IMG/VR virus record: IMGVR_UViG_3300045988_167063
DNA: 64,000 bases
From: a virus
Strand: one strand, 5' to 3'
This document shows, in pieces, positions 19,918 to 52,399 of this stretch (the stretch's first letter is position 1; each line of letters starts with the position of its first letter). The notes below the pieces were generated by a model. The model searched no databases and was not told where the DNA came from. It saw only the letters and a program-made list of their open reading frames with translations. A program made the position numbers and the translations under genes.

Positions 19918-19955
19918 TATGTACTATAAAGGAGTTAGATAAGCCTAACTCCTTT
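19918..19955 (-). promoter_or_regulatory. hairpin plus GTACATA unit (candidate late regulatory element)
   Basis: Minus strand: AAAGGAGTTAG-gcttat-CTAACTCCTTT, 3 nt, GTACATAAAGAGAGG, then ATG of 18039..19901. Confidence 0.4.
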
Positions 19956-19969
19956 ATCTAAAATATATT

Positions 19970-22900
19970 CTAATAAGATTTTTGTTTCATTTTTAAAGCA
20001 AAATCTTGTAAATAATTAACAAATTCTTCCCCATTATCCGTTTGAACATTCAAATTAGAAATATTTATATTTGTTGAATTTTCTTGTGAAGAATTATTTA
20101 TCGTGCCATTTCCTGCACCAAAGTTACTGCTACTAAAAGCACCAACATTATTTAAAATACCTGCTAAAGTATTTAAACTTTTAGCATTAACTACCCCACT
20201 ACCTTTTGGTAACATTGTAGTAATACCCTCATTTATTTTTGAGCCAACAACAAGTTCTGTATCTGGACTATCACCAACCAAAGCAATTTCGTCATTTTGA
20301 ACTCGTGCCACACCATCTGCGTGCTTTTTCTTTTTTTTCTTTTTAGATTTAGTCTTTGTAGAAGCAACAATCTTTTCAACTTTCTTATTTACAGATGCTT
20401 TTGAAACTTTTTTAGATGAACTTTTAGTCTTGTTTTCAAGTTCATCTAACTTTTTAGTCGCAGCCTCAAGCTTTTCAACTTGTTTTGTTGCACTTTCAAT
20501 TTTCTTTTGAATAGAAATGTATTTATTTTCAACATTACTTAATGTCGGAATAACATTATTTTTAAGTCCTTCTGTTCCAAAAATATCTGTTGTTCCAAGA
20601 TATTGTATTAAAAGTTGATTATTTTGAATATCTTTATATTTATTAGCAAGAGTATCAACTTGTTCCTTTTGCTTTTCAAGAATACTTATTTGATTATTAA
20701 GGCTATTAAGTATTCCGTCATTAGCCAATTTAATCTCATATTCTTTATCAAGACTATCTTGCTGTGCTTGTAAAATATCTCTTTGACTTTCAAGAGCAGA
20801 CACAGCATTTTCTTGTGCTTTTTCCCTATTATATTCATCTAAAGCTTGCTGTGCCTCATCTACTGCCCTTTCGTCAACACCATAAGTCCATTCGCCATCT
20901 TTAAATGTTTTGACTTTAGTCGCTTTAGCCTTTTGTAGTGCCTCAAGCTTTTCTTGTAATTCAATAGCATCGTTTACAGCATCATTAGCTTCTTCTTGCT
21001 TTTCAATTTCAGTATCAATAGCATCTATTTGAGATTGTAATAAGTCATTTTGTGCTTCTTTTTCAGCCTCAATCTGTTCTGTTCTTGCATCTTTTTCCTC
21101 TTCTAAAAGGTCAATTCTATCTTGAATTTTATCCGAAACAACACTGAAAACATCTTCAATATCCTCGGCTTGTTCTTTCCATTTATCAATGTTGTCCTCA
21201 AGTTTTTGCTTTTCCTTTTCAAGTTGTTTAGAAACCTTTTCAATAGATTTTGCAAGTTTCTTGTTTGCCTCGGTTAATGCCTTTTTAGCCTTTGTGGCTT
21301 TTGATGTAGCAGAAGAATTACTTTTAGTTGCTTTAGTTTGAGCAGCAGTGACCTTAAAGGATTTTTGCATTTGATTATGATAACCTTGATAAGCTTTCAT
21401 AATCTTTTCTTGACCCTCGGTCAATTTGTCTAAATTAACACCTTTACCACCTGCTGCCTCATTTGCAGTTGCAAGAGCAGTAGCAAAGCTTAGCACTCCT
21501 CCCGTAGCATTTGTAGCTTTATTACCCGTTGTTTCGGCAGTATCACCAAAAAGTCCAACTGCACTTTGAGCAAGATTAGACATATCGTTAGTGTTGCCCA
21601 TTGCATAATTATACATATCTTGAACAGCCGAATTGGCTAAAGTTTGAGTATAATTATTTGCAAGAGCTTGATTGAGATTGCCAAGCGTTGTTTTGTTAAT
21701 CTCAAATTGACCGCTATCGTTTATAAGATATTGTAAATATTCAGGTTGGAGGCTTAATAAATCTTGAAGTGTATCATAACTTACACCACCATATTTATTA
21801 TACTCTCTAAGAGCGTCTTTAGCAGTATCTTGAATATCTTTAAGTTCTTTAAGTTGAGTTGCTAAATCTTTTACAGCCTCGGCATTATCCGTAGTGCTAT
21901 CGGTGTTTTCGTCAGTTGAGTCGGTTGACTCGGATTGTGCATTTCTTTGTTTTAAATACTCATCGGTAGTCAAGCCTAAAGACTCTGCAAATTCTTTTGC
22001 TTGTTTTGCCGTTAATCCAAATTTCTTTAAAAGAGTTTTTTGACTTTCTGTCGCTTTATCCGCACTTTTAGCATTTTTGTTTTGAGTGCCATTTAATTTA
22101 TCTAAGGCTTTATTTGCTTCTTCGTTTGTTTGAGCATAAGCACCAAGATTTTCTTTGCCTATTTGATAAGCAATATTAGCATCTTCAAGAGTTTCTTTAT
22201 CTTGTTTTTGTTGTTCTGTGAGTTTTTTAATTTCTTCACTTGTTTGAGCTATGGCACTATCATAATTTTTATATCTGTTATTGCCTTGTTTTCTTAATTC
22301 GTCACTAACTTCTTGAAGTTTATCTTGATATTTTTGCAAGGCTTCTATTTGAGCTGTAATCCCCTTAGCAGATTTTACATCATCAAATTCAGACATTATA
22401 GAAATTTGTCCTTGACTCTGTTGTAATCGCTGAGATGTTAAATATCCTGTTAAAGAAGTGCCTTCTGTGGCTCTTTTAGTTGCACTTTTAACCTCACCAA
22501 CAGACTCTCTATATGTGGAAGCTGCCTCTTCAGCGTTTTGCTCTTTAAGAATTTCTAAATACTTTTCTCGTTCTTTAGTAGTGCCTTTAATAGCCTCTGT
22601 ATATTCACCAAAAATGTCGGTATTATTTTTGAGAATAGTATTTAATTCTTTTTCGGATAAATTTGTGTCGCTTAAATATTTTTCAAGTTCTTTATATTTA
22701 TCTGCACTTTCACTATAAGACTTTAGATTATCTCTTGCTTCTTTTGCGTTTTGTTCTTGTGTTTGCTTATATTTGTTATAAGCCATTACACCTATGCTTA
22801 TAGCAGATGTAACAAGACCGATAGCAGAAATAAGACCTTGTGTTGAAATTGCAAAACCCTCATTAGCAGTTGTTGCAGTATTTACACCTGTAACATATCC

Positions 22901-23542
22901 TGCAAAATGTTTTACAACTGTGGCTAAACCATTTGCCAAATCTTGTTTTATAGAATTAGCAAGATTTGCAATTCCACTTATAACACTATCAATTTTAAGG
23001 GCAATCACTTTAGCATTGATAGTAACTAAAATACCACCTATGGTAGTTAAAATAGCAACCAAATTGTTGCCATAGCCAATAAATTTGACTATACCTGTGC
23101 CAGCATCTACAAGATTCTTTAAAAATGTGTTAAGTCCACCCTCACCGAGTACAACCTCAGTAAACGCAGACTTTAATTGTGTAACCTTTGCTTGCAAGGA
23201 CTCCATATAAGCTTCGTTTTCTTTTGTTGCCGAGCCTTGCGAAGAAAGTGCTGTTATATTTGCCTCGATTGCCGTGTTGAAGTTACTCATAACGGCTGCG
23301 AATACCTTATATTGATGGTTAGAAGCAAGAGCATTACCAAGAGCAACTTGTTCCGTGTTGCTCATTGTTTCCCATTTAGGTGCTAAATCGGCAAGAATAT
23401 CATAGGTTGAACGAAGATTACCATTTCCGTCTTTAATTGCAACACCATATTCGGCTAATGCTTTTTCATTCTTTGCTATTCGGCTTGAAATGGTATTTAA
23501 ACCTCTTGCAACCTGTTGTGACTTGCCTTGGAATATTTCTGT
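19970..23542 (-). CDS. tail tape measure protein, exon 2
   Basis: The frame is open upstream of the ORF-track ATG back to TEIFQGKSQQVARGLNTISSRI (TMP core motif). Long coiled-coil body. Confidence 0.8.
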   Translation of the reverse strand, partial: TEIFQGKSQQVARGLNTISSRIAKNEKALAEYGVAIKDGNGNLRSTYDILADLAPKWETMSNTEQVALGNALASNHQYKVFAAVMSNFNTAIEANITALSSQGSATKENEAYMESLQAKVTQLKSAFTEVVLGEGGLNTFLKNLVDAGTGIVKFIGYGNNLVAILTTIGGILVTINAKVIALKIDSVISGIANLANSIKQDLANGLATVVKHFAGYVTGVNTATTANEGFAISTQGLISAIGLVTSAISIGVMAYNKYKQTQEQNAKEARDNLKSYSESADKYKELEKYLSDTNLSEKELNTILKNNTDIFGEYTEAIKGTTKEREKYLEILKEQNAEEAASTYRESVGEVKSATKRATEGTSLTGYLTSQRLQQSQGQISIMSEFDDVKSAKGITAQIEALQKYQDKLQEVSDELRKQGNNRYKNYDSAIAQTSEEIKKLTEQQKQDKETLEDANIAYQIGKENLGAYAQTNEEANKALDKLNGTQNKNAKSADKATESQKTLLKKFGLTAKQAKEFAESLGLTTDEYLKQRNAQSESTDSTDENTDSTTDNAEAVKDLATQLKELKDIQDTAKDALREYNKYGGVSYDTLQDLLSLQPEYLQYLINDSGQFEINKTTLGNLNQALANNYTQTLANSAVQDMYNYAMGNTNDMSNLAQSAVGLFGDTAETTGNKATNATGGVLSFATALATANEAAGGKGVNLDKLTEGQEKIMKAYQGYHNQMQKSFKVTAAQTKATKSNSSATSKATKAKKALTEANKKLAKSIEKVSKQLEKEKQKLEDNIDKWKEQAEDIEDVFSVVSDKIQDRIDLLEEEKDARTEQIEAEKEAQNDLLQSQIDAIDTEIEKQEEANDAVNDAIELQEKLEALQKAKATKVKTFKDGEWTYGVDERAVDEAQQALDEYNREKAQENAVSALESQRDILQAQQDSLDKEYEIKLANDGILNSLNNQISILEKQKEQVDTLANKYKDIQNNQLLIQYLGTTDIFGTEGLKNNVIPTLSNVENKYISIQKKIESATKQVEKLEAATKKLDELENKTKSSSKKVSKASVNKKVEKIVASTKTKSKKKKKKKHADGVARVQNDEIALVGDSPDTELVVGSKINEGITTMLPKGSGVVNAKSLNTLAGILNNVGAFSSSNFGAGNGTINNSSQENSTNINISNLNVQTDNGEEFVNYLQDFALKMKQKSY

Positions 23543-23544
23543 CT

Positions 23545-24663: not shown

Positions 24664-24803
24664 ATATCAATTTCTTTTTTAGACGATTTAATTTTCTTAT
24701 ATTTTCATATAAGAACCGACTATATTTTCATTTTAATAATAAAATGTAGGCTCTTTTGCTTTCGCTACTCTACTCACTTCGTCTACTTTTGTAGCTTATT
24801 CTA

Positions 24804-24832
24804 ATTATACCACAATTAGTTACATTTGTCAA
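24804..24832 (-). promoter_or_regulatory. sigma70-type promoter inside the intron, upstream of the endonuclease ORF
   Basis: Minus strand: TTGACA-aatgtaactaattgtgg-TATAAT (17-nt spacer, TG extended), same style as the early promoters. Confidence 0.4.
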
Positions 24833-25026
24833 GTATTTTTTACTTGATTGTTTTCGATAGTCTGTGAACCTTTCCTACTATTTCAAGTAAGACTTGGCTG
24901 CTGATTATCCATTATTACATATACATAATTTTCAAACATTCACACTTATAGTTTCCTATTATGTTGTAGTCTATGTATCTTTAGGACTTTCCAGCAATTT
25001 AGCCTATACAGGCAAGAAATTATTTC

Positions 25027-27119: not shown

Positions 27120-27139
27120 TATATTCTCTCCTTTATAAA

Positions 27140-28513: not shown

Positions 28514-28514
28514 A

Positions 28515-28963: not shown

Positions 28964-29029
28964 TTTATCACCTCTAAACAAAAAAAATAGGCTAATGTTT
29001 AAATAAAACACTAACCTATTTTATATATT

Positions 29030-31114
29030 TTATCCTTTATTCCAAACCTTTACTTGCGTTCCACTACTAAAATTACCCATCGAAGTTCTAATAGTAACCG
29101 AATTGTTTATAATAGGAGTTGGGAATAAACCAAAATTTCTATCACTACTTAAAGCAAAAGCAGTATTTGGTGTAATCGTACTCCAATCTAACAAAGCATA
29201 ATCATCACTTTGTTTTATAATATGCAATAAAACATTCTTACTATCTGTTTCTAAATTGCCAAGTGTAATATTAGTACCAAATAAATCAACTGTAAGACTA
29301 CCTTGTACTCCTGTATTTATAGGAGTATCTTTACTTAACCAAATATAATACTCTCCCTTGCTCAAATTAGACAAAGTATAGTATTCTGTATCTACCGAGA
29401 TTGACTCGTCTTTTAATATATCCCAACTTGGTGACAAATCAATATTTCCTCTATGCAAGATAGATTGATGATTTATTGTCTTTATATTTGTACCACTCAC
29501 AAGTTTATCTTGTTTTTTTACTAATTCTTCATCCATTTCTGCTCTTGTAGGAGTATAATTATTTATCCATTCTGCATCATTATGAAAATCATTAACAAAG
29601 TGCATACCTTCATTATCCCAATAAGAAAAAGAAGTGCCTGACTTACAAGTTATTACTCCTTTAGTAAAAGTTCTTTTTGTTTCATTAGACAACAATATGT
29701 TGCAACTTTCTATATTAATAATATAAAAGCTATCACTTAATGTTGTTAATTCAATACTATCTTTTAAGACAGGAGTTATAGGTAAATTTTCTAAATTATT
29801 AAAATCAGCAGTATTAAGAAGTTCAAAATTACCATTGCCTAAAATTGACTCATTATTTATGGTTTTAATGTTTTCGCCACTAATTAAAATATTTTGTTTA
29901 CCCTTGTCTAACTGTTCCGCAAATTGCCAAGTTTGATAAACTGCATTAAGATTAGTTCTATATAATTTCCAACTATCATTAGTTGTTAGTTTTTCAAAAT
30001 AATATTGATTTTCGTCTGTAATAAAATAAATAGACTTATATCCATTTTCGCCTTTATTGACTATTATAAAACTATTTGCGTTAACATAAATGACATTATT
30101 TTGTTTTTGAGTTGGTTCTTCTGCTTGCCAATCATATAAAATACTATTCGCAATACCAACATATCCTGCTTTATTTACAAAAATAGTTTTATTTTCGTCA
30201 AGTTGAGATAAATCATAGAAATTATCTTCCGTTGAATATTGTGAATAATCGGCAAAATCAATATTCTCAATATTTTCAAGAATATCAACTATGGACTGTG
30301 CGAGAAATTGCTTATCAATAGATTTATCTTTAAGTTTTAAAATGTCAGCATTTTCACCATTGCCAATTTCCTTGCTTAAAGGACTATTAACATCAAACTT
30401 CTTTGCTTTATTTTCAATAAGTTTTGCAAATACTTCATTATCTTTAATGTATTGAGTAATAAAATCTTTAAAAGAAATTTCCTCGCCTTTATAAGTGACT
30501 TTTGCCTCGTCAACCTTTAATCCATTTCCGATATTGTAATCATTTGCTGTTTTGTTCCCTTTTATTTCAATTTCGTTAAGTATTGGGATATTTAAAAGAC
30601 TTTCATAATCTTTTGTTTCGTCTTTAATTCTTGTTGTTGAAAGTACCTTATTACCACTCTTTAAAGATAAAGTATCATCTTCAAATTGAATACTATCACC
30701 TTTTGAGTCTAATTTATTCAATAACTGATTATATATAGGAATAGTTGGCTCTTGAGGAATTGTGTCGCTATCTTTGTCACTCTTTTGTAATATAATAGGT
30801 CTATTCATTTTAGTCCAAATTTCTGTATCATCTTGAACACCTTGAATAGAAACAATTAATTGACCCTCTCTTGTCAATACTTCCCACGGAATAAGACACA
30901 CTGTTTCATTTTCGCCCAAGAACATAGGAACACTAATGTCTTTTTCATCTTTATCATTACTTTTATTTATGAAATATGCAGTTTTAGAAAAATTATTCCA
31001 ATCCTCACTAAATTTGAATTTAGCGGTGTGGTATTTAACGGAGTCTGTTAAAATAATTCTTTTGGCATTTTTACAAACTACATCTAATTTATTTATATCA
31101 AAGGCATAAATCAA
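29030..31114 (-). CDS. tail fiber-like protein
   Basis: Two copies of the SG.NIKTIN..SIL..GN..L motif (SGENIKTINNESILGNGNFEL, SGTNIKTINHQSILHRGNIDL) typical of phage fibers. Confidence 0.55.
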   Translation of the reverse strand: MIYAFDINKLDVVCKNAKRIILTDSVKYHTAKFKFSEDWNNFSKTAYFINKSNDKDEKDISVPMFLGENETVCLIPWEVLTREGQLIVSIQGVQDDTEIWTKMNRPIILQKSDKDSDTIPQEPTIPIYNQLLNKLDSKGDSIQFEDDTLSLKSGNKVLSTTRIKDETKDYESLLNIPILNEIEIKGNKTANDYNIGNGLKVDEAKVTYKGEEISFKDFITQYIKDNEVFAKLIENKAKKFDVNSPLSKEIGNGENADILKLKDKSIDKQFLAQSIVDILENIENIDFADYSQYSTEDNFYDLSQLDENKTIFVNKAGYVGIANSILYDWQAEEPTQKQNNVIYVNANSFIIVNKGENGYKSIYFITDENQYYFEKLTTNDSWKLYRTNLNAVYQTWQFAEQLDKGKQNILISGENIKTINNESILGNGNFELLNTADFNNLENLPITPVLKDSIELTTLSDSFYIINIESCNILLSNETKRTFTKGVITCKSGTSFSYWDNEGMHFVNDFHNDAEWINNYTPTRAEMDEELVKKQDKLVSGTNIKTINHQSILHRGNIDLSPSWDILKDESISVDTEYYTLSNLSKGEYYIWLSKDTPINTGVQGSLTVDLFGTNITLGNLETDSKNVLLHIIKQSDDYALLDWSTITPNTAFALSSDRNFGLFPTPIINNSVTIRTSMGNFSSGTQVKVWNKG

Positions 31115-31143: not shown

Positions 31144-31171
31144 TATGTACCAAAGGGGCAAAATGCCCCTT
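31144..31171 (-). promoter_or_regulatory. hairpin plus GTACATA unit
   Basis: Minus strand: AAGGGGCA-ttt-TGCCCCTT, 2 nt, GTACATAATTAAATTAGAAAATGGGAGGG, then start of 29030..31114. Confidence 0.4.
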
Positions 31172-31721: not shown

Positions 31722-32402
31722 TTACAAAAAATCATCCTTATTTAAAAAGAGTGTTATATCACAAAGGATAATACTCCACAAAATGCAAGATGTGTATAAA
31801 TATAATTTTAAATATAGAAACAAAATGGCAAAAAATAAGGATATGACTATCCATTTAATCATACCCTTTCTATACCAAACAACATCATAAGGTTTATTAT
31901 ATTTGCTTGTATCTATATTTAATTTATTCCACAATAAAGTATAAGGTTTATTATTATACCACCTATCTTTAGGTTGTATATCGTTTATTTGCTCTTTAAA
32001 TGGTGCTTTTATATATAAGTCCTTAATTGATATTAACGCAATTAAAAAGACTAACCAAAGCCATTGTAGAGAATATTTTGACATATATCCTGTAACTATA
32101 ATTAACATATTAGAAATTACACTACACCTCAAATTTGAAGTGCAATGAAAACCGCCACAAAATTTTCTAATCTTATTAAAAACAATCGCGCTTACAATTA
32201 CAAAAGGCAAAATGTCAAACAAAATACCAAATACTATTATTGGAGTATATGTAGTTATTAGATAAATACAACAAGTTACATAATATGCTAAATCGTGATT
32301 GTCTGTTTTCTTAATAATAAAATCTTGTATTTTTTCTAAAATAAAAATCACCTCATTGTATTTATTATGTACTATGGTTGCTTTTTCAAGTAAAAGAACC
32401 AT
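31722..32402 (-). CDS. agrB: AgrB-like membrane cysteine endopeptidase
   Basis: IRKFCGGFHCTSNLRCSVIS aligns with S. aureus AgrB [20 protein letters not shown]. The catalytic His and Cys show the same 7-residue spacing. Multiple TM helices. Confidence 0.7.
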   Translation of the reverse strand: MVLLLEKATIVHNKYNEVIFILEKIQDFIIKKTDNHDLAYYVTCCIYLITTYTPIIVFGILFDILPFVIVSAIVFNKIRKFCGGFHCTSNLRCSVISNMLIIVTGYMSKYSLQWLWLVFLIALISIKDLYIKAPFKEQINDIQPKDRWYNNKPYTLLWNKLNIDTSKYNKPYDVVWYRKGMIKWIVISLFFAILFLYLKLYLYTSCILWSIILCDITLFLNKDDFL

Positions 32403-32425
32403 ATAAGAAAACTTTTAAGGTGTAA

Positions 32426-32902
32426 TTACTTACGAACTACGCCTGAACCCCACCATTGTTTCATCTTTAATCTCCTTAAAACGAAAATAAATATAAATTC
32501 AAATAAATCAATTACTATGAAATATTTGAACATTTTAAAGTTTGTAAGTTTAGATAAATCAATATTACAAACTCTCTCATAAAACAAAGAAAATGTTGCA
32601 TTGATTACTAAAGTATATAAATATTCTAAAGCAATAACAATTAACGAATAAAACACTTTCTTTATATCCTCATTTGTGTAATATCTTATCCTATAAATAT
32701 AGGCAAATATTACTATAATACCTATAATTTGCCTTGCAATAGGTGGTGCTAATGAACTCAAACAAAATACTGCACTAACAACTAAAGCATCGACAAATTT
32801 CAGTTTGATTTTTGTCAACTTGTTTACAAATAGATAGAATACTAAACTATCCCATAAACTAAATAACAAATAATCTGTTGCTAAGCCTTTAATAATTTCC
32901 AT
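32426..32902 (-). CDS. polytopic membrane protein
   Basis: About 5 hydrophobic segments, basic C-terminus. No kinase or other soluble domain. Confidence 0.55.
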   Translation of the reverse strand: MEIIKGLATDYLLFSLWDSLVFYLFVNKLTKIKLKFVDALVVSAVFCLSSLAPPIARQIIGIIVIFAYIYRIRYYTNEDIKKVFYSLIVIALEYLYTLVINATFSLFYERVCNIDLSKLTNFKMFKYFIVIDLFEFIFIFVLRRLKMKQWWGSGVVRK

Positions 32903-32969: not shown

Positions 32970-33218
32970 TCAAGAGGAAAATGGAAAATTATCGTTAGTT
33001 TTTTCTACTACTTTTGTTGGTGGTACACAACAACAATCTAAATTTGGCAATATTTTTTCATACATTACCCTACTTCTAAATATATTATCAATTTGACTTA
33101 AACACTCTGCAACCTCTTTAAGTTCGCTAACATACATTTCATCATATTTTCTTGACTCTATTTCTGCTATTAGTCTATCAATTTGTGTATCAATCTTATC
33201 TCTTATACAATTTTCCAT
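32970..33218 (-). CDS. small helical protein with C-terminal CCC motif
   Basis: ATG preceded by GAAAGGTGGCTTTATAGAA. C-terminal ...LPNLDCCCVPPTKVVEKTNDNFPFSS. Confidence 0.5.
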   Translation of the reverse strand: MENCIRDKIDTQIDRLIAEIESRKYDEMYVSELKEVAECLSQIDNIFRSRVMYEKILPNLDCCCVPPTKVVEKTNDNFPFSS

Positions 33219-33242: not shown

Positions 33243-33602
33243 TCAAGCATTTGTAAAATTGTATCTCAATATTTTAATGATTTGTTTTAAATCATCTTGT
33301 TTTATCTCTCCAAGTAACCTTTCTATTCTCTTTTTGCTTATATCTCTTATACATTCGCATAAAACAGTATTTGTCTTTTTTGCAAAGAACAGATAATCGT
33401 CACGAGATAATTCGTAATGATTTATCATATTTTTTTTGGTTGTACTTGATGTAATTGGAATAACAATAACATTATTCCGATTTTTATTCAGCATTTCTGC
33501 CGAAACAACAATACAAGGTCTTATACCCTTTTCCTCATTGCCAACATTTTCGTCACCAAGATTAACCATATAAATTCCACCTTGTTTTATGCTTCTACTC
33601 AT
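33243..33602 (-). CDS. mazF: MazF/PemK-family endoribonuclease toxin
   Basis: KQGGIYMVNLGDENVGNEEKGIRPCIVVS...VIVIPITSS and VLCECIRDISKKRI align with B. subtilis EndoA [28 protein letters not shown]...AAITAQ / VILLEQIRTIDKQRL. Confidence 0.8.
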   Translation of the reverse strand: MSRSIKQGGIYMVNLGDENVGNEEKGIRPCIVVSAEMLNKNRNNVIVIPITSSTTKKNMINHYELSRDDYLFFAKKTNTVLCECIRDISKKRIERLLGEIKQDDLKQIIKILRYNFTNA

Positions 33603-33967
33603 ATCTTTTTAGGTTTACTTGTTACTACTTTCTTTTTTTGTTCAAAAGGTGTCAACGAAACATCATAAATATCATCAATTCCCTCTTGAACATATACATA
33701 TTCGGGTACACTCTTAAAAGTGTTTTTTACTTTAATTGTAGTGTCCTTATATTCAATATATAAATATCCCCTACGCTCAAACAAAACTCTATTCGAGCCT
33801 TTTGGAATTTCCTTTAAATCTTTCACTTTACAATTTTCCCACCTGTCATTGAGAATAAATTTATTTTGCAAATTACAGAATTTACTATAATTGCAAATAT
33901 TATTAGTTTTTTTACAAAATAAATATTCTTTGCCTTTAAAATTCCTATATTCTGTATAAAAACACAT
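33599..33967 (-). CDS. Cys-rich protein translationally coupled to the MazF-like gene (candidate antitoxin)
   Basis: ATGA overlap with the downstream toxin. Five N-terminal Cys residues (C2, C18, C25, C31, C46). No AbrB/RHH-like motif recognised. Confidence 0.5.
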   Translation of the reverse strand: MCFYTEYRNFKGKEYLFCKKTNNICNYSKFCNLQNKFILNDRWENCKVKDLKEIPKGSNRVLFERRGYLYIEYKDTTIKVKNTFKSVPEYVYVQEGIDDIYDVSLTPFEQKKKVVTSKPKKI

Positions 33968-34013
33968 AAGTTTATCACCTATAAAAATGTGGGAGAGTAT
34001 AAAACCCTCCCAC

Positions 34014-34049
34014 TATATGTAAAAAGAGTAGAGTTTTACCCCTACTCTT
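34014..34049 (-). promoter_or_regulatory. hairpin plus TACATATA unit (variant), followed by a second hairpin
   Basis: Minus strand: AAGAGTAG-gggtaaaact-CTACTCTT, ttt, TACATATAG. Next comes hairpin 33989..34013, whose 11-nt loop GGTTTTATACT is identical to that of hairpin 37352..37375. Confidence 0.35.
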
Positions 34050-36562: not shown

Positions 36563-36829
36563 TCACATAAAGTGTTTAAGAAAATTTCCTATACCCTTTA
36601 TATTTTTTAAATTTCCTTGAGTAGTTTTCATTATTTCCTCAGCCTGTTTTGTTGCTTGATTTATCTGTTCTTGAGAAAATTGCCCACTACTCTGCATTTT
36701 TGCTAATAGCTCATTTGGGTCTAAATTTTTCATATTCATAACATCAACGAATTTTTGAAAATTATTCATATTGAACCCATTACCATTAGACTGTGAAGAA
36801 CCCATAGAAAAAGGATTAAAAGATTTCAT
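36563..36829 (-). CDS. small Q/N/S-rich hypothetical protein
   Basis: ORF coupled to the upstream gene (TAATG overlap). Confidence 0.5.
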   Translation of the reverse strand: MKSFNPFSMGSSQSNGNGFNMNNFQKFVDVMNMKNLDPNELLAKMQSSGQFSQEQINQATKQAEEIMKTTQGNLKNIKGIGNFLKHFM

Positions 36830-37323
36830 TACTTCGCCTCCCTATTTTGAGTTTTGGTAGGTTTAACTTTTGATAATTCTTGAATAGTATTATTCTGTTG
36901 AATTATAACATCTTTTAACCTATCAACCTCACTATTAAGTTCGTTAAATTTGTCAACAGTTACATAATTTTTATTTTCTTTTGTTTCTGAATTATTAAAA
37001 TCAATCTCGTGTAATTCGTATGCCCCAAAACTCGGTTGCCCCACGGCTGAAACCGCTTTAACATAAATTTCAGGCTTGCTTGTATGTCTAAACCACCTTA
37101 TTTGTCCGTTTGGCACATTAAAGTCTTGTGCCTCTTGCATACTTGAAACTGTAATAAAATCAAAATTAGTATTAGTCATTTGACTATTATTATTATTTTG
37201 TTGTTCTACCATATTCATATATCTGTTATATCGGCTATCATTATTAAAATTATTTTGAAAGCCATTTGGTTGTTGATAAGTCATTCCATAATTATTAGGA
37301 AAGCCATAACCACCATAACTCAT
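36829..37323 (-). CDS. protein with Q/N/Y/G-rich low-complexity N-terminus
   Basis: ATG 37323 after GAAAGGTGGCTTATAGA. N-terminus is MSYGGYGFPNNYGMTYQQPNGFQNNFNN...QQNNNNSQ. Confidence 0.55.
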   Translation of the reverse strand: MSYGGYGFPNNYGMTYQQPNGFQNNFNNDSRYNRYMNMVEQQNNNNSQMTNTNFDFITVSSMQEAQDFNVPNGQIRWFRHTSKPEIYVKAVSAVGQPSFGAYELHEIDFNNSETKENKNYVTVDKFNELNSEVDRLKDVIIQQNNTIQELSKVKPTKTQNREAK

Positions 37324-37342
37324 TCTATAAGCCACCTTTCAC

Positions 37343-37375
37343 TATGTACTATTGCGTGAGTATAAAACCCACGCA
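37343..37375 (-). promoter_or_regulatory. hairpin plus GTACATA unit
   Basis: Minus strand: TTGCGTG-ggttttatact-CACGCAA, 2 nt, GTACATAGTGAAAGGTGG, then ATG 37323. Confidence 0.4.
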
Positions 37376-37399
37376 ATTTATATTTAAACTAATTTATAG

Positions 37400-38356: not shown

Positions 38357-38739
38357 CATTAAACTATTTTTCTTTTATTATAAAACGCTACTTTTATAAT
38401 GCTATTTCGTTCACACTAATAGCCACATTCTTTCGATATGTGATAAGACTATTTCTTCACCTTTAAATTAAAGGGCAACCCATTTCTTCCTCCAAACACT
38501 TGAGGCTTTACTCTCTCCCGAGATAGTCGTTTAACCTTTTCCTATTCAGAACTTGGCGACCAAACTTCCATTGTTGCTTCTACTTAGGATTTAACCATAT
38601 AGAAATTTCTGTTGTTGTTTCTGCTTTCGCAACATTCATAAAATCATATTTCATATTTTATTGTAGTAACAGAACTTTAGGATTTACTGGTTTTAAGGTT
38701 GTGTCCTATGCTAATCACTTAACATACGGAGCATTAGTT
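38357..38739 (-). mobile_element. group I intron (ORF-less) in major tail protein gene
   Basis: Minus strand contains GGTTAAACGACTATCTCGG and GAAGAAATAGTC core elements. The 5' end GAGT|AACTAATGCTCC mirrors the terL intron GAGT|AAATAATAATGCTCC. Confidence 0.6.
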
Positions 38740-41415: not shown

Positions 41416-41424
41416 AAACTCTCC

Positions 41425-43178: not shown

Positions 43179-43188
43179 TTTATTAAAT

Positions 43189-43842: not shown

Positions 43843-43870
43843 ATATAAAACTCCTATATTTTATAAATAA

Positions 43871-43903
43871 TATGTACGAGGTGGGTATATTTCAACCCAC
43901 CCC
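43871..43903 (-). promoter_or_regulatory. hairpin plus GTACATA unit
   Basis: Minus strand: GGGGTGGG-ttgaaatata-CCCACCTC immediately followed by GTACATATTATTTATAAAATATAGGAG, then ATG 43842. Confidence 0.4.
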
Positions 43904-43935
43904 AAATATAATCAACTCTAATCTAAAAGAGTAAA

Positions 43936-45033: not shown

Positions 45034-45058
45034 TAATATTTTCTCCTTTTCCTACAAA

Positions 45059-45589: not shown

Positions 45590-45616
45590 ATATTTAATCT
45601 CCTTATAAAAAGTTAA

Positions 45617-47131: not shown

Positions 47132-47313
47132 TTTTGCGGAGTTTCCCCCTTTCCTAAAATTTTACATATCTTATCTGTTTTAAGATAATATATTTTATCT
47201 ACACCGATTTCACGATAAATCGGAATAAAACCTAATTTATGTAATTTTTTAGACTGTTCGGAGGTAACGCAAATATAATCATCAATATTGTTAGGTTTTC
47301 CTAAAATAATCAT
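47128..47313 (-). CDS. small hypothetical protein
   Basis: 61-aa ORF between the portal and protease genes. Confidence 0.45.
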   Translation of the reverse strand: MIILGKPNNIDDYICVTSEQSKKLHKLGFIPIYREIGVDKIYYLKTDKICKILGKGETPQK

Positions 47314-47324
47314 ATCATTATCTC

Positions 47325-48956
47325 CTATTGATACTCACGACTGACCGCTCCACCCTCAGCTAAATCACTATTATCCTTTTGTGGTGCGCCAATATCGTAA
47401 GTATTTGTATTAGCATTAAACAAGGCAAATAAAGTATTTTGCATATCACTATGTTTAGCCTCTTTTACCATTGTTTCAAATTCACTGCCCTCATAACCTA
47501 AAAGAGTTCCCCACTTTCTTAAAGGCACTTGTATTCCTTTATCAGATAATTTTAAATGAGTATCAATATCTTCTTTCCTCTTAAAAGGCAGTGTACTACC
47601 ACTAACACGAAATCTAAATTTATATCTTTTAGTTTTCTTGTTTACAAAGAAATTTAAAAAGTTTTCAAATTGTGGATAAACTGCATTTGCAATTTCTTGA
47701 TAATCAGCGTTTGCAGCCAACTGTGCCTCTTCTTGTGATAATCTTTCATCTGTATAAATAAGTGAACTATTTGAAGCACCTAAACCAGCACTTGTTTTAA
47801 GTTGATTTTTATACATATTACTATTATTATCAGCAAATTGATAAAGCCTTGTTTCTTCAAGAGGTAAAGCAATTTGCTTAATATTTTTGTTAATGCCATT
47901 TCTTGCCAATCTCATAAGTTGTCCGACAACTTTAGGGTCAATAGTAAAGGCATTTTTATTATTGCCAACATTATCTTTATCTCTTGTTTTCATTTCTCCA
48001 AGAATAATTGCATTTGCAGAAATAATATCCTTATCTCTTTGTAATTTAGAAATTATATCATCATCAAATACTGACTTTAATAAGGAAGTTAAAGGTGGAA
48101 CAGTATTAAAATTAGAGGTATCATATTTAAACAACCAACTTCCTGCATTTACCTTTGTTCTTATATAATTTTCAGCATTAAAAGTATTTTGCCTACCCAA
48201 ATTTGACATATTGTCTACAATAAAGTTTTGCATTTGTTTGCTATTATCTTTACTACTTTGTCCTAATTTAGAATAGGCTTGGGCAAGTGTTTCGTCATAA
48301 TTAAGAACATTTACATTTGAACCATTAAAATAATTCAAATTAAAATCCCATAAAAAGCCATTTGCCCCACTACTTATAAAACGACCTGTGAGTTTACAAT
48401 ACTTTTGTGGCATCATTTGTAATGAAAAAGACTCTTTATTATCGTTCAAATCAATCGGAGTATCGTCAAAAGTCTTTTCGCTATCTCTAAGCCAACAAAA
48501 ATAAGTATCTGTTTTGAGCATATTTTTGACAACATTTCTAAATTCTTGTTTCGCTTTAAAATAATTAAAGAATTTATCTACTCTTTTGCAATCCTCTTTA
48601 TACTCTTCACTTTCAAACTCATCATCGTCTACTATATTAATCGGAACTCTATCTATATCAAAAGCCAATAAATTTGTTTTATATTCTATTGCCCTTTTAT
48701 AAATAGCATCCCAAGTTTCCATAAATTCGGAATAATCTTGTAATGTTTCAGCAGAATTTTTATAAGTAGCAATAGCTTGCCTTAAACTATCTCTGTCAGG
48801 TATTTGTTCATTATTATTTAAGTCAACTAATGTTTTATATTCGTTTATAGTATCATAAAAATAATTATTCTTATCTAATGGTGCTGAACTATAAAGTGCG
48901 TTCATAAAATCAATTACATTCCACACTTCGTCACGAGTTATAACTTCATCAGGCAA
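47325..48956 (-). CDS. portal protein
   Basis: 543 aa, directly downstream of terL and upstream of the protease. TTG start after GAAAGGAGG. Confidence 0.6.
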   Translation of the reverse strand: MPDEVITRDEVWNVIDFMNALYSSAPLDKNNYFYDTINEYKTLVDLNNNEQIPDRDSLRQAIATYKNSAETLQDYSEFMETWDAIYKRAIEYKTNLLAFDIDRVPINIVDDDEFESEEYKEDCKRVDKFFNYFKAKQEFRNVVKNMLKTDTYFCWLRDSEKTFDDTPIDLNDNKESFSLQMMPQKYCKLTGRFISSGANGFLWDFNLNYFNGSNVNVLNYDETLAQAYSKLGQSSKDNSKQMQNFIVDNMSNLGRQNTFNAENYIRTKVNAGSWLFKYDTSNFNTVPPLTSLLKSVFDDDIISKLQRDKDIISANAIILGEMKTRDKDNVGNNKNAFTIDPKVVGQLMRLARNGINKNIKQIALPLEETRLYQFADNNSNMYKNQLKTSAGLGASNSSLIYTDERLSQEEAQLAANADYQEIANAVYPQFENFLNFFVNKKTKRYKFRFRVSGSTLPFKRKEDIDTHLKLSDKGIQVPLRKWGTLLGYEGSEFETMVKEAKHSDMQNTLFALFNANTNTYDIGAPQKDNSDLAEGGAVSREYQ

Positions 48957-48980
48957 TAACGACTATTCCTCCTTTCTTAT

Positions 48981-49556
48981 TTAACCATAATCGTAAATAT
49001 CACTGAAATCATCTAAATCAATTTCAGCATCTTGTTCATCTTTCACATACTTAATATAGACTTTATCACAAAAGTAATTAAACATTGCCAAAGTCATATA
49101 TCTATCCTTTGTAGCTGTACTTTTTTCTTTAACTCTAACACCTTTATCTTTAAATTCTGTTGTTAAAGTAATTGCCTCATTAATAGCATACCTTGTTTCA
49201 ACAAACGGTACAAGGTCATAAGCCTTCTTTTCAGAGGACTTCAATATCCATTTACTATCTTTTTCTTGAAATAGTAATTCCATTTCAGAGTCATCTTTAA
49301 GAAAACTAATTATATTATCTTTAAGATTTTTTCTCATCGCTAAGTGCATATCACTATTGATTTCACTTGTACCAGCAATAGGAATAATTACTTCTTCGGC
49401 ATTAGAGTCCATAGTCCTATTAATTTTATCATTTATGATTTTATCAGAGCTTATTTGTAAAATTTTATCTCTACATACAGTCCACGCAGGATATGTAATA
49501 TCTCTTTCATCATCATATGTTTCAGTTGTCAATAAATCAAAGAAAACATTTCCTAC
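48981..49556 (-). CDS. terL: terminase large subunit, exon 3 (nuclease domain C-terminal part)
   Basis: Begins VGNVFFDLL. The ORF-track TTG is the intron end. Joins DSKG of exon 2 to give DSKGVGNVFFDLL, like the D.xGxG nuclease motif. Confidence 0.75.
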   Translation of the reverse strand, partial: VGNVFFDLLTTETYDDERDITYPAWTVCRDKILQISSDKIINDKINRTMDSNAEEVIIPIAGTSEINSDMHLAMRKNLKDNIISFLKDDSEMELLFQEKDSKWILKSSEKKAYDLVPFVETRYAINEAITLTTEFKDKGVRVKEKSTATKDRYMTLAMFNYFCDKVYIKYVKDEQDAEIDLDDFSDIYDYG

Positions 49557-49911
49557 CAATTATGTTATCATATAAGTTTTTTATCTTATATTTCTTATAG
49601 TTGTATTTCCTATAAGTTCGGCGTACCTTTTCATCTAATAAATTTATTTATATAAAAATGACAAGTTTATTTTATTTTTTTGCGTTCCAAAATACATATA
49701 CTTCTTCACTTATTATCATTTATTACTACTAATTATTTATTAGATGCCGAGAACTCTTGGCAAAATTATATTCTATAAAAATAGTTTCATTTGCTACGCT
49801 CTGCGTGTGACTATTCTTTTAAAAATAGCCTTCCACTCGGATTGACATTTCAGTTTTTCCGTTTCTTTCTCGGTTCGATTATATATCACTATATAAAAGG
49901 GCGAAGTTTTC
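49557..49911 (-). mobile_element. group I intron (ORF-less) in terL
   Basis: Follows ggT (G of DSKG). 3' end is ...GAACTTATAGG...CTTATATGATAACATAATTG, homologous to two other introns. Contains GCCAAGAG. Confidence 0.65.
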
Positions 49912-50892
49912 ACCTTTTGAGTCCATAACAAAATATGTGCATTTATAATCATAAAATAATCTTTTTATCATTACAATTTGTTTTTGAGAATTTAAACCAT
50001 TTTCGGCTTTTATATACTCTACTTTTCTTTGATTTGTTTCTATATCTATATTTCCTAATACAAAAACTGTATTATCGTTTTCTCTACCACCACTAACGGC
50101 AATATCCATTGCCAATACTCTTATTTCATTTTCGTGACTAAAATCATATTTATTTTTAATATTATAATAATAGTCATCATTTGTAGTTGGTAAAAAAGCA
50201 GTTTCAAGCACTTGATTTTTATGAAAATCATCATACAAAAACAAACTACCTTCTGTTTCACCAAGCCACAAATTCAAAAACTCCATTTCAAAATCCAAAT
50301 CATTTGTATTTTCTCGTCTTGTTAAATACTGATTTTTTGTTTGAATTTTATTAGCAACTGCTGTAAATATATCACCTGCAAAAAAGCCATATTTAATTCT
50401 TTTATCTGTGTAATGCTTTCTAACTACTGTTTTTAAATAAGTCCAAACCCAATTATCTTTCGTTCTTGCCGAAGTCATAAATATTTGCTTTGGCTCAATC
50501 ATTAACCCATTAAAACTATATGGCTCAAGCATAGGTTCAACAATAGACTCATAGTCTCTTTTCTTAACAATTCTTGCCTCATCTGTTATAGTTATATTAG
50601 CTCTTGCACCACGACCTGTTTCATTACACGCAACAGCGAATATTTTACTACCATTGCCATATTCGACAACTCTACCACCTGTTGTTTTATCTTTTGTAAA
50701 GTTAATATAGCCATCTGCTCGTAGTTGTTTTAAAATAGGACTTATGCCTTTTTTGTCACTACTTAACAACTTATCAATTTTATCATCAATAATTTTATTA
50801 CTTTGACCTAAAGTAAGCGAAGTAATAGCAATTTGAACTCCGGGTAAAAGCAAAGCAAGGTCATTGGCGAGAACACCTATGGTAAAGGATTT
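49912..50892 (-). CDS. terL: terminase large subunit, exon 2
   Basis: KSFTIGVLAND..., Walker B ITITDEARIV. Ends ...YFVMDSKG. Confidence 0.75.
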
Positions 50893-51178
50893 CAATTTTG
50901 TTATCGTATAGGCTCTTTATCCTATACTTCTTATACTGTACTAATTTTCGTATAAGTTCAGAGTACATTTTCATACATAAATACAGAGTATGTGGACACT
51001 CTTGGTGATATTATATTCTTCCATTTCAAAAGTTTCAATCACTACTCGTTACAATACTATTAATTTTTACATTAAATAGTTATCTCGGTGTTGTACTTAA
51101 AATTAGTGTAGTTTCACCGATTTTGCCCAATTTGCTTTATAACTATCTATAATTCATTATAAAGGAGCATTATTATTT
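50893..51178 (-). mobile_element. group I intron (ORF-less) in terL Walker A motif
   Basis: Splits ASRGLS|KSFT. Follows agT and ends ...CCTATACGATAACAAAATTG. Confidence 0.65.
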
Positions 51179-51418
51179 ACTCAATCCTCTACTTGCAATA
51201 AACGCATAAATATCATATTCCCAACAGTCAAGTAATACTTGTCTTTGAAAATAATGTAGTGGTATTTTTAAATGTTCTTCAGTAAAAATATCAAGATTAT
51301 TAAGATAAAATAATTGCCAATTAGCAATTCTCCTATCATAATCTTTTTTACTCAATTTTTTATTTTCTTTTATTTTCTTTTCTTTTGCCAAGCTAATAAG
51401 TTGTTTTTCGTCAATCAA
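51179..51418 (-). CDS. terL: terminase large subunit, exon 1
   Basis: Ends ...YAFIASRGLS (start of Walker A, compare T4 gp17 SRQLGKT). A stop follows two codons later. Confidence 0.7.
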
Positions 51419-52355
51419 GATTATATTTGTCTATGTCATCAATAGATAAATTAAAATCTCTATTGCCTGCCAACATATTTCCTAACGGTCTTAAAACCAT
51501 ATCTTTTTCATATTGATGTACTTTATTGAGGTCATAATATCTGCTTGGCTCTGAATATACATCCTCGACATTATTTTCGTCTACAAGTCTTATCTTTTCA
51601 AACAAAGACTGTTCCGAAGCCGTTTTAGGCTTATTGCTTTCATATTCATCAATACGAAGTTTATTCATATCTCTTATAATTCGATTTTGAACTTTATCTC
51701 TTGTTTCTTCACCACTATATGAACCGTCATCAATTTTTCTCAATAGCAATCTATCTCTACATAAATCACGATAAAGGTCATCTTGCGGTTCATTTATGAT
51801 TTCTACATTTTTTGTATATCTCTCATAGGTTCTTTCAAGATATTGATAATCTTCTGAACTTTCTTGTTTTCCCCAATTAAGTTCAAATTCATCAAGTTCT
51901 TTTTGTCTTAATTCTCGTTGTTCTATTCTACTATCAATATCACTTAAATTAACATTTGTTGCTGATAATTCATTCCAAATATTCTTTTTAGTTTTTGACT
52001 TATGTAATTCAGAAATATACAATCCCAAATAATTGTTCATTCGTTTGCCTTCTTTGCGACCTTCTTTCATTCGGTTTTCGACACCTGCCCAAACCTCAAG
52101 AATAAAAGGAATGTCATTTCGCAAACAAGTATAATAAACGGCTGATTTCATACTACAACCATTTTTAATATAATAATCAATCATTTTTTGACAACAATCT
52201 TTACAATAAGGTGTATGCCCACTTGCAAAAGGTGACCAACTTTCGTAAAAATTAGTCGCACCTCTCATACCACTACACCCTAATTCTGTATTATTGCCGA
52301 GGCAAAGAAACATATCGGTTTCCTTTTTTATGTTTTTAGAAGCCAACGCTTTCAC
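51411..52355 (-). CDS. putative terminase small subunit
   Basis: Immediately upstream of and overlapping terL. Cys-rich N-terminal region. Assignment by position only. Start uncertain. Confidence 0.35.
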   Translation of the reverse strand: MKALASKNIKKETDMFLCLGNNTELGCSGMRGATNFYESWSPFASGHTPYCKDCCQKMIDYYIKNGCSMKSAVYYTCLRNDIPFILEVWAGVENRMKEGRKEGKRMNNYLGLYISELHKSKTKKNIWNELSATNVNLSDIDSRIEQRELRQKELDEFELNWGKQESSEDYQYLERTYERYTKNVEIINEPQDDLYRDLCRDRLLLRKIDDGSYSGEETRDKVQNRIIRDMNKLRIDEYESNKPKTASEQSLFEKIRLVDENNVEDVYSEPSRYYDLNKVHQYEKDMVLRPLGNMLAGNRDFNLSIDDIDKYNLD

Positions 52356-52358
52356 CTC

Positions 52359-52399
52359 TATGTACTAAAAAATAAAAGAGAGAACTTTTGCTCTCTCTT
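52359..52399 (-). promoter_or_regulatory. terminator-like hairpin plus GTACATA unit
   Basis: Minus strand: AAGAGAGA-gcaaaagt-TCTCTCTT, TTATTTTTTA, GTACATAGAGGTG, then the start of the packaging operon. Confidence 0.45.

Follow-up and report, generated by a model that had tools for sequence, protein, structure and literature searches.

Stem-loop and TACATA units between the late genes of a gut phage: sites more likely to be cut by MazF than to act as promoters

The window analyzed here, the whole 64,000-nucleotide stretch of the viral record IMGVR_UViG_3300045988_167063, carries a late block of genes on the minus strand, preceded by the gene of a YonO-like two-barrel RNA polymerase and closed by a strong terminator. 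Seven intergenic units, each consisting of a stem-loop, 0 to 5 nt, [G/T]TACATA, and then a ribosome-binding site, lie within this block, together with a gene for a MazF/PemK-family endoribonuclease (Table 1). The first polymerase exon matches phrog_8308 (E 1.3e-73), of which YonO of SPbeta is a full-length member, whereas direct BLASTP to YonO is only marginal; the catalytic DxDxD motif is present as ADFDSD at the start of exon 2, and L034 (L numbers denote phage records used for comparison) has an uninterrupted homologue with the contiguous NGCDFDSD. The MazF assignment rests on Pfam PF02452 (E 5.8e-22), the PHROG annotation "MazF-like growth inhibitor," and best PDB matches to Staphylococcus aureus MazF and Bacillus subtilis EndoA. 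No MazE-type antitoxin gene was recognized beside it: the overlapping upstream open reading frame (ORF) has no Pfam or PHROG match and also occurs in a clade without MazF, and the downstream ORF is not conserved. The upstream ORF is conserved in all clades and has no known role, although it could be a MazF partner. An Rfam search found no family anywhere in the window, including the putative introns and the conserved block after the polymerase gene.

Table 1. Coordinates of the late-block units and associated features in the window (all on the minus strand where a strand is given)
Feature	Coordinates	Strand	Elements	Context	Counterparts in relatives
Unit 1	52359..52399	-	Stem-loop 52399-52376 with a U-tract; GTACATA 52365-52359	Directly before the SD of the first terminase exon	Equivalent unit in L006/L025, L009-L012, L020-L022 and L032/L033, with different stems
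Unit 2	43871..43903	-	Stem-loop 43903-43878 (9 bp, one G.U), abutting GTACATA 43877-43871	Directly after the major capsid gene	Orthologous units after the capsid gene in L006, L020/L067, L033, L034, L078 and L080
Unit 3	37343..37377	-	Stem-loop 37377-37351; GTACATA 37349-37343	Before ORF 36829-37335	Orthologous site in the 82% group reads TTACATA, with co-varying stems (L020, L066, L068)
Unit 4	33989..34049	-	Stem-loop 34049-34024; TTACATA 34022-34016; second, U-tract stem-loop 34013-33989	Ahead of the ORF 33599-33967/MazF pair	Same two-hairpin arrangement in L019, L066/L067 and L034
Unit 5	32366..32403	-	Stem-loop 32403-32373, abutting GTACATA 32372-32366; then SD GAGGTG	Inside the mis-called 5' end of the AgrB-like ORF (Pfam AgrB match starts only at residue 23)	Orthologous unit L067:11852
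Unit 6	31144..31171	-	Stem-loop 31171-31153; GTACATA 31150-31144	Before ORF 29030-31114	Orthologous units L066:8596 and L067:13102
Unit 7	19918..19957	-	Stem-loop 19957-19926; GTACATA 19924-19918	Between the tape-measure gene and ORF 18039-19901	
MazF/PemK-family gene	33243..33602	-	Candidate enzyme that reads the UACAUA core		Homologues in the same position in every unit-bearing lineage
Cys-rich 122-aa ORF	33599..33967	-	Stop overlaps the MazF start		All clades, including the MazF-less one
ORF downstream of MazF	32970-33218				Not conserved
YonO-like RNA polymerase gene	55073..58746	-	Exon 1, 58746-56917; exon 2, from about 56050 to 55073; split just before the catalytic ADFDSD; HNH ORF 56219-56836 in the insert	Expressed from a sigma-70 consensus promoter at 59163-59135	Uninterrupted homologue in L034
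Sigma-70 promoter	32973-32945		Perfect TTGACA-17-TGnTATAAT	In front of ORF 32426-32902	
Sigma-70 promoter	24832-24804				
Terminator	11995..12030	-	Strong stem-loop with a U-tract, no TACATA after it	End of the late block	

The first-pass annotation described five of these units and the TTACATA variant from the sequence alone, and the observation is confirmed, since all six are present on the minus strand at the positions it gave; unit 5 had been missed. Motif frequency had been named in advance as a criterion on which the idea could fail, and the plain count of GTACATA is not outstanding (12 versus 8.7 expected), although all 12 copies are on the minus strand. What stands out is the association with a hairpin: 7 of 25 sense-strand TACATA have a hairpin (dG <= -9) ending within 6 nt upstream, against 0.92 expected (Poisson P=5e-5). 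No such units occur on the antisense strand, and the early regions have none except one weak coding-end site at 9462 with C at position -1. The annotation was right that an identical 11-nt loop, GGTTTTATACT, is shared by the hairpins at 37375-37352 and 34013-33989, but its statement that the late block lacks a consensus sigma-70 promoter apart from one in an intron is wrong, because a second, perfect one lies ahead of ORF 32426-32902.

A search of relatives, also suggested beforehand, shows that the units recur with different, co-varying stems down to about 37% portal identity. Megablast of 6 kb against the phage collection gave no match, so these relatives were found through proteins. The conserved core is TACATA: among 56 distinct hairpin-associated TACAT, 47 are followed by A, and position -1 is G (29), T (22) or A (5) and never C. 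The distance from the last paired base to the T of TACATA is 1 to 6 nt, mostly 1 to 3, whereas the distance from motif to start codon is 8 to more than 60 nt. The stems are RNA-like and selected on the sense strand, with 47 internal G.T versus 7 A.C when both are scored equally (P=2e-8), and 37 of 43 are more stable on the sense strand by RNAfold. In L034 the motif follows a tRNA-Pro by 6 nt instead of a hairpin.

The invariant core is identical to the published strict cleavage hexamer of Bacillota MazF/EndoA, U^ACAUA. B. subtilis EndoA cuts only U/ACAU followed by A (PMC11780869), and the MazF enzymes of B. subtilis, Listeria monocytogenes and S. aureus all prefer UACAUA (bioRxiv 10.64898/2026.08.06.743204); a literature search for GTACATA itself returned nothing of use. 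All seven units of the window carry the hexamer on the coding strand. The residues of the phage protein that align with the Arg and Thr named as critical in a Klebsiella pneumoniae MazF study (PMC8086154) are kept in every lineage, but at about 30% identity to characterized enzymes its specificity is not readable from sequence, and the host is unknown, so that the presence of a MazF with this specificity is left undecided. The mean predicted unpaired probability is 0.70 for the units versus 0.47 for other copies in the window (n=7 versus 18, Mann-Whitney P=0.08), a modest difference that does not settle whether the sites are accessible as single strands. The annotation had noticed the MazF-like gene without connecting it to the motif.

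The phage MazF gene travels with the motif across lineages. A homologue is found in the same late-block position in the window, the 82% group, L019, L078-L085, L088 and L099, all of which have units, whereas the clade L090-L098 keeps the neighboring gene but has no MazF and no units. Intergenic hairpins followed by TACATA within 8 nt number 35 of 76, versus 0 of 29 in the MazF-less sister clade (Fisher P=1e-6). MazF presence and motif presence map to one clade, so the co-distribution may amount to a single evolutionary event; L086 looked at first like a MazF-less lineage nested in the MazF+ clade, which would have been an independent contrast, but it does carry MazF, missed by tblastn, and its units have decayed. 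In the MazF-less clade and in SPbeta, the same intergenic hairpins carry U-tracts or unrelated tails: in the former, 4 of 29 meet a strict U-tract criterion, and T-runs follow the hairpins at the two sites read in detail, after the capsid gene and before the ORF 33599-33967 homologue, while the SPbeta stem-loops, examined for a shared downstream motif, are plain U-tract terminators. TACATA therefore occupies the slot just 3' of an RNA hairpin where a U-tract sits in a terminator.

Other classes of signal fit less well. The units are not sigma-70 promoters, since the -35 region is the variable stem and the SD begins 1 to 4 nt after the motif at several sites, and the hairpins are not ordinary intrinsic terminators, since only 3 of 35 TACATA-associated hairpins also meet the U-tract criterion, unit 1 being one that has a U-tract. 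The G.T/A.C asymmetry and the weaker antisense folds argue against a DNA cruciform or a template-strand hairpin of the N4 type, as does the lack of conserved stem and loop sequences, and that reading was rejected.

We favor, at a probability of about 0.6, the interpretation that the units are RNA-level processing cassettes in the late polycistronic transcript. In this view, a MazF/EndoA-family endoribonuclease, with the phage's own enzyme as the main candidate, although that of the host may also act, would cut between U and A; the upstream mRNA segment would be left ending in a 3' hairpin with only a 2- to 7-nt tail, poor footing for 3' exonucleases, and the downstream segment would start with a 5'-OH, a short leader and its SD. 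One long late transcript, presumably made by the YonO-like polymerase, would thereby be cut into segments whose stabilities can differ, with no need for transcription termination between genes. Our analysis establishes the anatomy and conservation of the units, sense-strand selection of the stems, identity of the core with the MazF hexamer, co-distribution with the phage gene, and loss of the motif in the MazF-less clade; that the phage MazF has UACAUA specificity, that cleavage happens at these sites, and that segments are stabilized as a consequence are inferences, as no RNA-end data exist and cleavage products with 5'-OH and 2',3'-cyclic phosphate ends were not measured. Several results weigh against this interpretation. 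UACAUA is not avoided inside coding regions of the MazF+ clade (78 observed versus 73 expected), so that an unrestrained enzyme would also cut inside about 18 places in the late genes of the window; UACAU shows only a mild deficit in the window, shared by control words, although the method works, because GATC is strongly depleted. Unit 1 follows a canonical terminator, so its motif is in RNA only if the late polymerase reads through from upstream, and no late promoter has been located. In favor of the interpretation, the terminator at the end of the late block lacks the motif, and the SPbeta family has a published functional link with MazF.

The interpretation favored by the first-pass annotation, a promoter or hairpin promoter of the phage RNA polymerase by analogy with N4, is only partly supported: the units are a real, nonrandom, phage-specific signal of the late block, the annotation was right that they are not sigma-70 promoters and that the hairpins are not ordinary terminators, and RNA processing was among its three options, but the promoter is not the best-supported reading. 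A promoter is not excluded, and in its strongest form, which we consider unlikely but the leading rival, [G/T]TACATA is a start-site element of the YonO-like polymerase and the hairpins are terminators or stabilizers of the preceding transcript, so that the late block would be read as six or seven units. The polymerase is expressed early from a sigma-70 consensus promoter; the units are confined to the late block, in sense orientation and always upstream of a gene; the first lies right after the canonical terminator of the early polymerase operon and right before the first packaging gene, where a first late promoter is expected; the last terminator lacks the motif; intragenic sense copies would be harmless; and no promoter is known for any YonO-type enzyme (PMC5467207). 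However, this reading explains neither the identity with the MazF site and the co-occurrence with a phage MazF gene, nor the 0- to 5-nt coupling to a hairpin selected at the RNA or sense-strand level while the distance to the gene is free. About 13 bits of information is too little to specify sites, TTACATA is as common on the antisense strand as expected, and antisense depletion of GTACATA, sought as a promoter signature, is not significant once relatives are included. YonO of SPbeta makes its late genes as one operon from a single start (PMC5467207), the only mapped YonO start, and internal repeated promoters are not expected for this polymerase type. The primers place that start between L002 10550 and 10356, a 195-nt interval without TACATA; it was not located more exactly, and a scan of genome contigs with the primer found nothing. 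Primary 5' ends at the motif were not examined, for want of transcript data. A different post-hairpin motif co-varying with the polymerase was sought in more distant relatives (L014, L015, L036, L040, L042, L086, L091 and L093) and none was found; relatives with a more divergent YonO-like polymerase have hairpin, tail and SD with no room for a replacement motif.

A less likely possibility is that the units are MazF-related but act as sensors or decoys, host MazF tuning or aborting late expression at exposed leader sites according to host state, or the sites titrating MazF with the phage homologue as a modulator. SPbeta-family phages are reported to inhibit, activate and sense host MazF, SPbeta late genes carry a 2-fold excess of UACAUA (28 versus 14, z 4.6), the MazF-less sister clade shows mild depletion of the hexamer in coding sense (21 versus 32.8), and a unit plus a second hairpin sits in the leader of the MazF operon itself in several lineages. 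No data distinguish this from processing, but the position immediately after a stable hairpin and before each SD fits product stabilization better than inactivation, and the units are kept for long evolutionary times at several operon junctions. Least likely is a termination or pause signal specific to the phage polymerase, in which the hexamer would replace the U-tract of an intrinsic terminator and so set a step-down in expression along the late operon, for although the geometry of a hairpin followed directly by a short A/U-rich tract matches an intrinsic terminator, the motif sits where related phages have U-tracts or other tails, and a step-down after the capsid gene would make sense, the late block ends in a U-tract terminator without the motif, a unit precedes the very first late gene, downstream genes would need promoters and no other conserved element exists, an exact six-base requirement is unexplained, and the match to the MazF site would be a coincidence.

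More tentatively, and somewhat less probable than not, a whole clade of gut Bacillota siphophages with a YonO-type late polymerase may have domesticated a MazF toxin, without an antitoxin, as a dedicated mRNA-maturation enzyme, the tails of old intergenic hairpins having been replaced by U^ACAUA and one read-through transcript being cut into hairpin-capped, separately stable messages. MazF enzymes are usually treated as toxins or defense switches, and only recently has the Bacillota enzyme been recognized as a strict six-base, regulon-specific nuclease. If the processing reading is true, a phage lineage that carries its own MazF and keeps dozens of structured UACAUA cassettes at operon junctions would be the first case of a toxin-family RNase used constructively for viral mRNA maturation, and it would also explain how a YonO-type polymerase making one very long late transcript achieves differential gene expression. 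The case also warns against reading every repeated intergenic motif in a polymerase-encoding phage as a promoter.

Compared with cleavage by the MazF enzymes of B. subtilis, S. aureus and L. monocytogenes, the hexamer is identical, the target would likewise be single-stranded and the phage protein belongs to the same Pfam family, but here the enzyme is phage-encoded, lies in the late structural block without a recognizable MazE, has not been tested for cleavage, and its candidate sites are organized as cassettes right after stem-loops at operon junctions. Intercistronic processing of long phage mRNAs occurs at T7 RNase III sites, where the cut leaves a 3' hairpin that stabilizes the upstream piece, and at SP82/SPO1 Bs-RNase III sites, and T4 RegB is a phage-encoded, sequence-specific endoribonuclease; however, RNase III is a host enzyme that cuts inside the duplex, and RegB cuts GGAG and inactivates early mRNAs, whereas here a single-strand hexamer next to the hairpin would be read by a toxin-family enzyme. 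SPbeta shares the PHROG family of the polymerase, the gene order (polymerase, HU-like YonN, YonJ-like, terminase, portal) and stem-loops between late genes, but it has one mapped late start, U-tract stem-loops, no MazF of its own and no hairpin-TACATA series, with only one look-alike seen, before yonB. The N4 virion RNA polymerase, the precedent cited for a hairpin promoter, likewise involves a hairpin next to a short conserved sequence in front of genes of a phage with its own polymerase, but it reads a DNA hairpin on the template strand with fixed geometry and conserved stem and loop bases, whereas the stems described here vary freely and tolerate G.T only on the sense strand, with loops of 3 to 12 nt.

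The window is part of a roughly 87-kb, 29% G+C tailed phage from human-gut metagenomes, without a close relative in the GenBank phage set; by portal protein, its distant relatives are the Enterocloster phages and SPbeta-like phages. A single block of minus-strand genes starts with a two-barrel RNA polymerase of the YonO family, whose exon 1 matches phrog_8308 at E 1.3e-73, a family of which SPbeta YonO is a full-length member. It is followed by an HU-like gene and a YonJ-like gene and then by terminase, portal, capsid, tail and lysis genes. The polymerase gene has a near-perfect extended sigma-70 promoter, and the divergent early genes have perfect ones. The gene is interrupted exactly between ...TDLQDRTNG and the catalytic ADFDSD by an insert carrying an HNH/NUMOD4 ORF, whereas an uninterrupted homolog in the relative L034 reads ...DRANGCDFDSD..., and the relatives L011 and L012 have the insert without the ORF. 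A search against Rfam detected no group I intron in this insert or in the four other putative introns of the window. The window itself has no tRNA genes.

The observation made in the first-pass annotation, a recurrent hairpin followed by GTACATA in front of late operons, held: all six sites it described are present, and a seventh, which it had missed, has the hairpin abutting GTACATA inside the mis-called start of an AgrB-like ORF. A motif frequency no higher than expected in a genome-wide test had been set out beforehand as a possible refutation, and in the window the raw count of GTACATA is indeed unremarkable; however, 7 of the 25 sense-strand TACATA have a stable hairpin ending within 6 nt upstream, against 0.92 expected (P=5e-5). 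No such units occur on the antisense strand, and the early regions have none apart from one weak site with C at position -1. The claim that no consensus sigma-70 promoter lies in the late region apart from one inside an intron is wrong, since two perfect TTGACA-17-TGnTATAAT promoters lie inside the block, one ahead of a membrane-protein ORF and the other inside the putative intron of the tape-measure gene, ahead of its endonuclease ORF. A further GTACATA inside an ORF has a weak upstream hairpin and is followed by GGTGGAG and an in-frame ATG; its nucleotides are kept in the 82% group of relatives although the protein is only 38% identical, so that it is either a further unit or simply a conserved GYING peptide. 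The AgrB-like gene (quorum-sensing peptide maturation) is conserved in the 82% group and in the relative L019, and its annotated start is probably about 20 codons too long because the seventh unit lies inside it.

Coordinates of the features discussed, in the window and in related phage sequences
Sequence	Feature	Coordinates	Strand
Window	Gene block starting with the polymerase	58746 to 12034	minus
Window	Extended sigma-70 promoter of the polymerase gene	59163-59135	
Window	YonO-like polymerase, exon 1	58746-56917	minus
Window	Insert in the polymerase gene	56003-56916	
Window	HNH/NUMOD4 ORF in the insert	56219-56836	
Window	YonO-like polymerase, exon 2	about 56050-55073	minus
Window	Conserved non-coding block after the polymerase gene	54890-55072	minus
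Window	GTACATA inside ORF 54254-54823	54620-54626	minus
Window	Other putative introns	24664-24945, 38360-38733, 49560-49878, 50896-51172	
Window	Hairpin after the capsid gene	43878-43903	
Window	Hairpins sharing one loop sequence	37352-37375 and 33989-34013	
Window	Cys-rich ORF preceding MazF	33599-33967	minus
Window	MazF/PemK ORF	33243-33602	minus
Window	Perfect sigma-70 promoter ahead of membrane-protein ORF 32426-32902	32973-32945	minus
Window	Seventh unit, hairpin	32403-32373	minus
Window	Seventh unit, GTACATA	32372-32366	minus
Window	AgrB-like gene	31722-32402	minus
Window	Perfect sigma-70 promoter in the putative tape-measure intron	24832-24804	minus
Window	Final terminator of the block	12030-11995	
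Window	Weak early-region site	9462	
L009	Counterpart of the GTACATA at 54620-54626	14146	
L012	Tandem duplication at the unit before the terminase gene	15826-15840	
L034	tRNA-Met and tRNA-Pro genes	3204-3276 and 5536-5608	
L086	MazF gene	11361-11711	
L067, L066, L033, L032, L093, L090	Hairpins sharing the (U)GAAAUAU loop	L067:1235, L066:12712, L033:16436, L032:671, L093:4297, L090:4124	
L001/L002 (SPbeta record)	Late genes	21280-63875	minus
SPbeta record	Hairpin + TACATA + SD look-alike before yonB	50218	
SPbeta record	TACATA just before the yonG SD	56486	

To examine conservation, relatives were fetched from IMG/VR and metagenomes by capsid, polymerase, portal, MazF and a conserved tail-region protein. 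The unit recurs at the same gene junctions in lineages whose portal is only 37 to 39% identical and whose polymerase is 43% identical (L032-L034), and the stems are different and co-vary between orthologous sites. Across 56 distinct hairpin-associated TACAT, the next base is A in 47, and the preceding base is G in 29, T in 22, A in 5 and C in 0. The T of TACATA lies 1 to 6 nt, mostly 1 to 3, after the last paired base, while the distance to the start codon ranges from 8 to more than 60 nt, indicating that the conserved element is TACATA, tightly coupled to the 3' side of a stem-loop. In L012, the unit before the terminase gene carries a tandem duplication, GTACATAG-GTACATAG, where its sister contigs L009 and L010 have GTTACATAG. 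Many of the intergenic hairpins, especially the one after the capsid gene, share the loop sequence (U)GAAAUAU although their stems differ, and this holds in relatives without MazF too; separately, two hairpins of the window share the loop GGTTTTATACT.

The hairpins act on the sense strand. By RNAfold, 37 of 43 stems are more stable on the sense than on the antisense strand, but these hairpins had been picked by sense energy, and we therefore repeated the test symmetrically by scoring G.T and A.C quasi-pairs equally, which gave 47 internal G.T and 7 A.C (P=2e-8). This speaks for an RNA structure, or at most a sense-strand DNA hairpin, and against a template-strand hairpin of the N4 type or a cruciform.

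A candidate for the protein that reads TACATA is encoded in the late block itself. One ORF is a MazF/PemK endoribonuclease (Pfam, E 5.8e-22), its best PDB matches are S. aureus MazF and B. subtilis EndoA, and the residues aligning with the Arg and Thr named as critical in a K. pneumoniae MazF study are kept. B. subtilis EndoA has been shown to cut only U/ACAU followed by A, that is, the hexamer U^ACAUA (PMC11780869), and the MazF enzymes of B. subtilis, L. monocytogenes and S. aureus share this specificity (bioRxiv 10.64898/2026.08.06.743204). The invariant core of the phage unit is exactly this hexamer.

The motif and the phage MazF gene are distributed together. In every lineage that has units (the window, the 82% group, and the relatives L019, L078-L085, L088 and L099), a MazF homolog sits at the same place in the late block, following the homolog of the Cys-rich ORF. 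A sister clade (L090-L098; also L036, L040 and L054) keeps that neighboring ORF but has no MazF within 10 kb and no units, and its intergenic hairpins, at the same junctions, are followed by U-tracts or unrelated sequence, as in SPbeta. Of the distinct intergenic hairpins, 35 of 76 are followed by TACATA in the MazF-bearing set and 0 of 29 in the MazF-less set (Fisher P=1e-6). On a single-protein tree, however, the MazF-bearing lineages form one clade, and this may therefore be one evolutionary event rather than many. L086 is an exception: it keeps a MazF gene, with GKRL instead of GIRP, but its hairpins are followed by TATTTATA, TTACTTTT or ATAATATAA rather than TACATA, which is either decay of the system or a change of specificity.

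We propose that the late block is transcribed as a long RNA that MazF cuts at U^ACAUA, leaving an upstream segment that ends in a hairpin with a very short tail and a downstream segment that starts with a 5'-OH, a short leader and its ribosome-binding site. What the analysis shows is the form and conservation of the units, the strand on which the stems are selected, the identity of the core with the published hexamer and its co-distribution with the phage gene; cleavage at these sites by this enzyme is inferred. There are no RNA-end data, and the specificity of this MazF is unknown. This reading explains the exact hexamer, the tight hairpin-to-motif spacing together with the free motif-to-gene spacing, the sense-strand selection of the stems and the absence of the motif after the final terminator of the block. 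A weak point is that the unit between the early terminator and the first packaging gene follows a canonical terminator; for the motif to be in RNA there, the late polymerase must start upstream and read through. In L034, where tRNA-Met and tRNA-Pro genes lie between the polymerase and terminase genes, the hexamer follows the tRNA-Pro by 6 nt instead of a hairpin, which fits a rule of structured RNA followed by a cut site. The unit before the MazF operon itself is always the TTACATA form and is followed by a second, U-tract hairpin, suggesting control of the enzyme's own message.

The promoter interpretation is only partly supported. A promoter for the YonO-like polymerase remains possible, though we consider it unlikely: it fits the restriction to the late block, the sense orientation and, above all, the position of the unit between the early terminator and the first packaging gene, but it does not explain the match to the MazF site, the co-travelling MazF gene, the RNA-type hairpin coupling or the low information content of the motif. 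No late promoter was found; a candidate region is a non-coding block of about 180 nt right after the polymerase gene, which is far better conserved than its neighbors, being about 85 to 90% identical to phages whose next ORF is only 38% identical as protein, folds somewhat better than shuffles (z -2.2), has no Rfam match and could hold the real late promoter. A sensor or decoy role linked to MazF, which we rate as less likely still, is not separated from constructive processing by sequence data alone. A polymerase-specific terminator fits the geometry but neither the unit before the first late gene nor the lack of the motif at the end of the block, and is very unlikely.

UACAUA is not avoided inside coding regions of the MazF-bearing clade (78 versus 73 expected), although the same method detects the near-absence of GATC from coding DNA in all late genes of the window and of the related loci (for example, AGATC is seen 5 times versus 162 expected and TGATC once versus 145 expected). 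The GATC trend is the same but less strong in the sister clade, and it points to a GATC-cutting restriction system in the hosts. In the MazF-less relatives (L036, L040, L042, L054 and L090-L098), by contrast, TACATA is mildly depleted in the coding sense strand (21 versus 32.8, z -2.6, rank 77 of 1,767 hexamers). Cleavage in the MazF-bearing clade must therefore be tolerated, limited in amount or favored at exposed sites; predicted accessibility is 0.70 for the units versus 0.47 for other copies, a difference that is not significant. The lack of avoidance is not strong counterevidence, given what is seen in SPbeta.

SPbeta has a host with a UACAUA-specific MazF that is reported to affect SPbeta-family phages, yet its late genes contain twice as many TACATA in sense as synonymous shuffles give (28 versus 14.0, z 4.6). 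One hairpin + TACATA + SD look-alike precedes yonB, and another TACATA lies just before the yonG SD. SPbeta YonO makes its late genes as one operon from a single start (PMC5467207), and the conserved non-coding block behind the polymerase gene of the window recalls the unannotated non-coding RNA at that start site. Overall, the units are real and conserved, and the best-supported reading is a set of MazF-type processing cassettes, which would be a new use of a known nuclease family by a phage.
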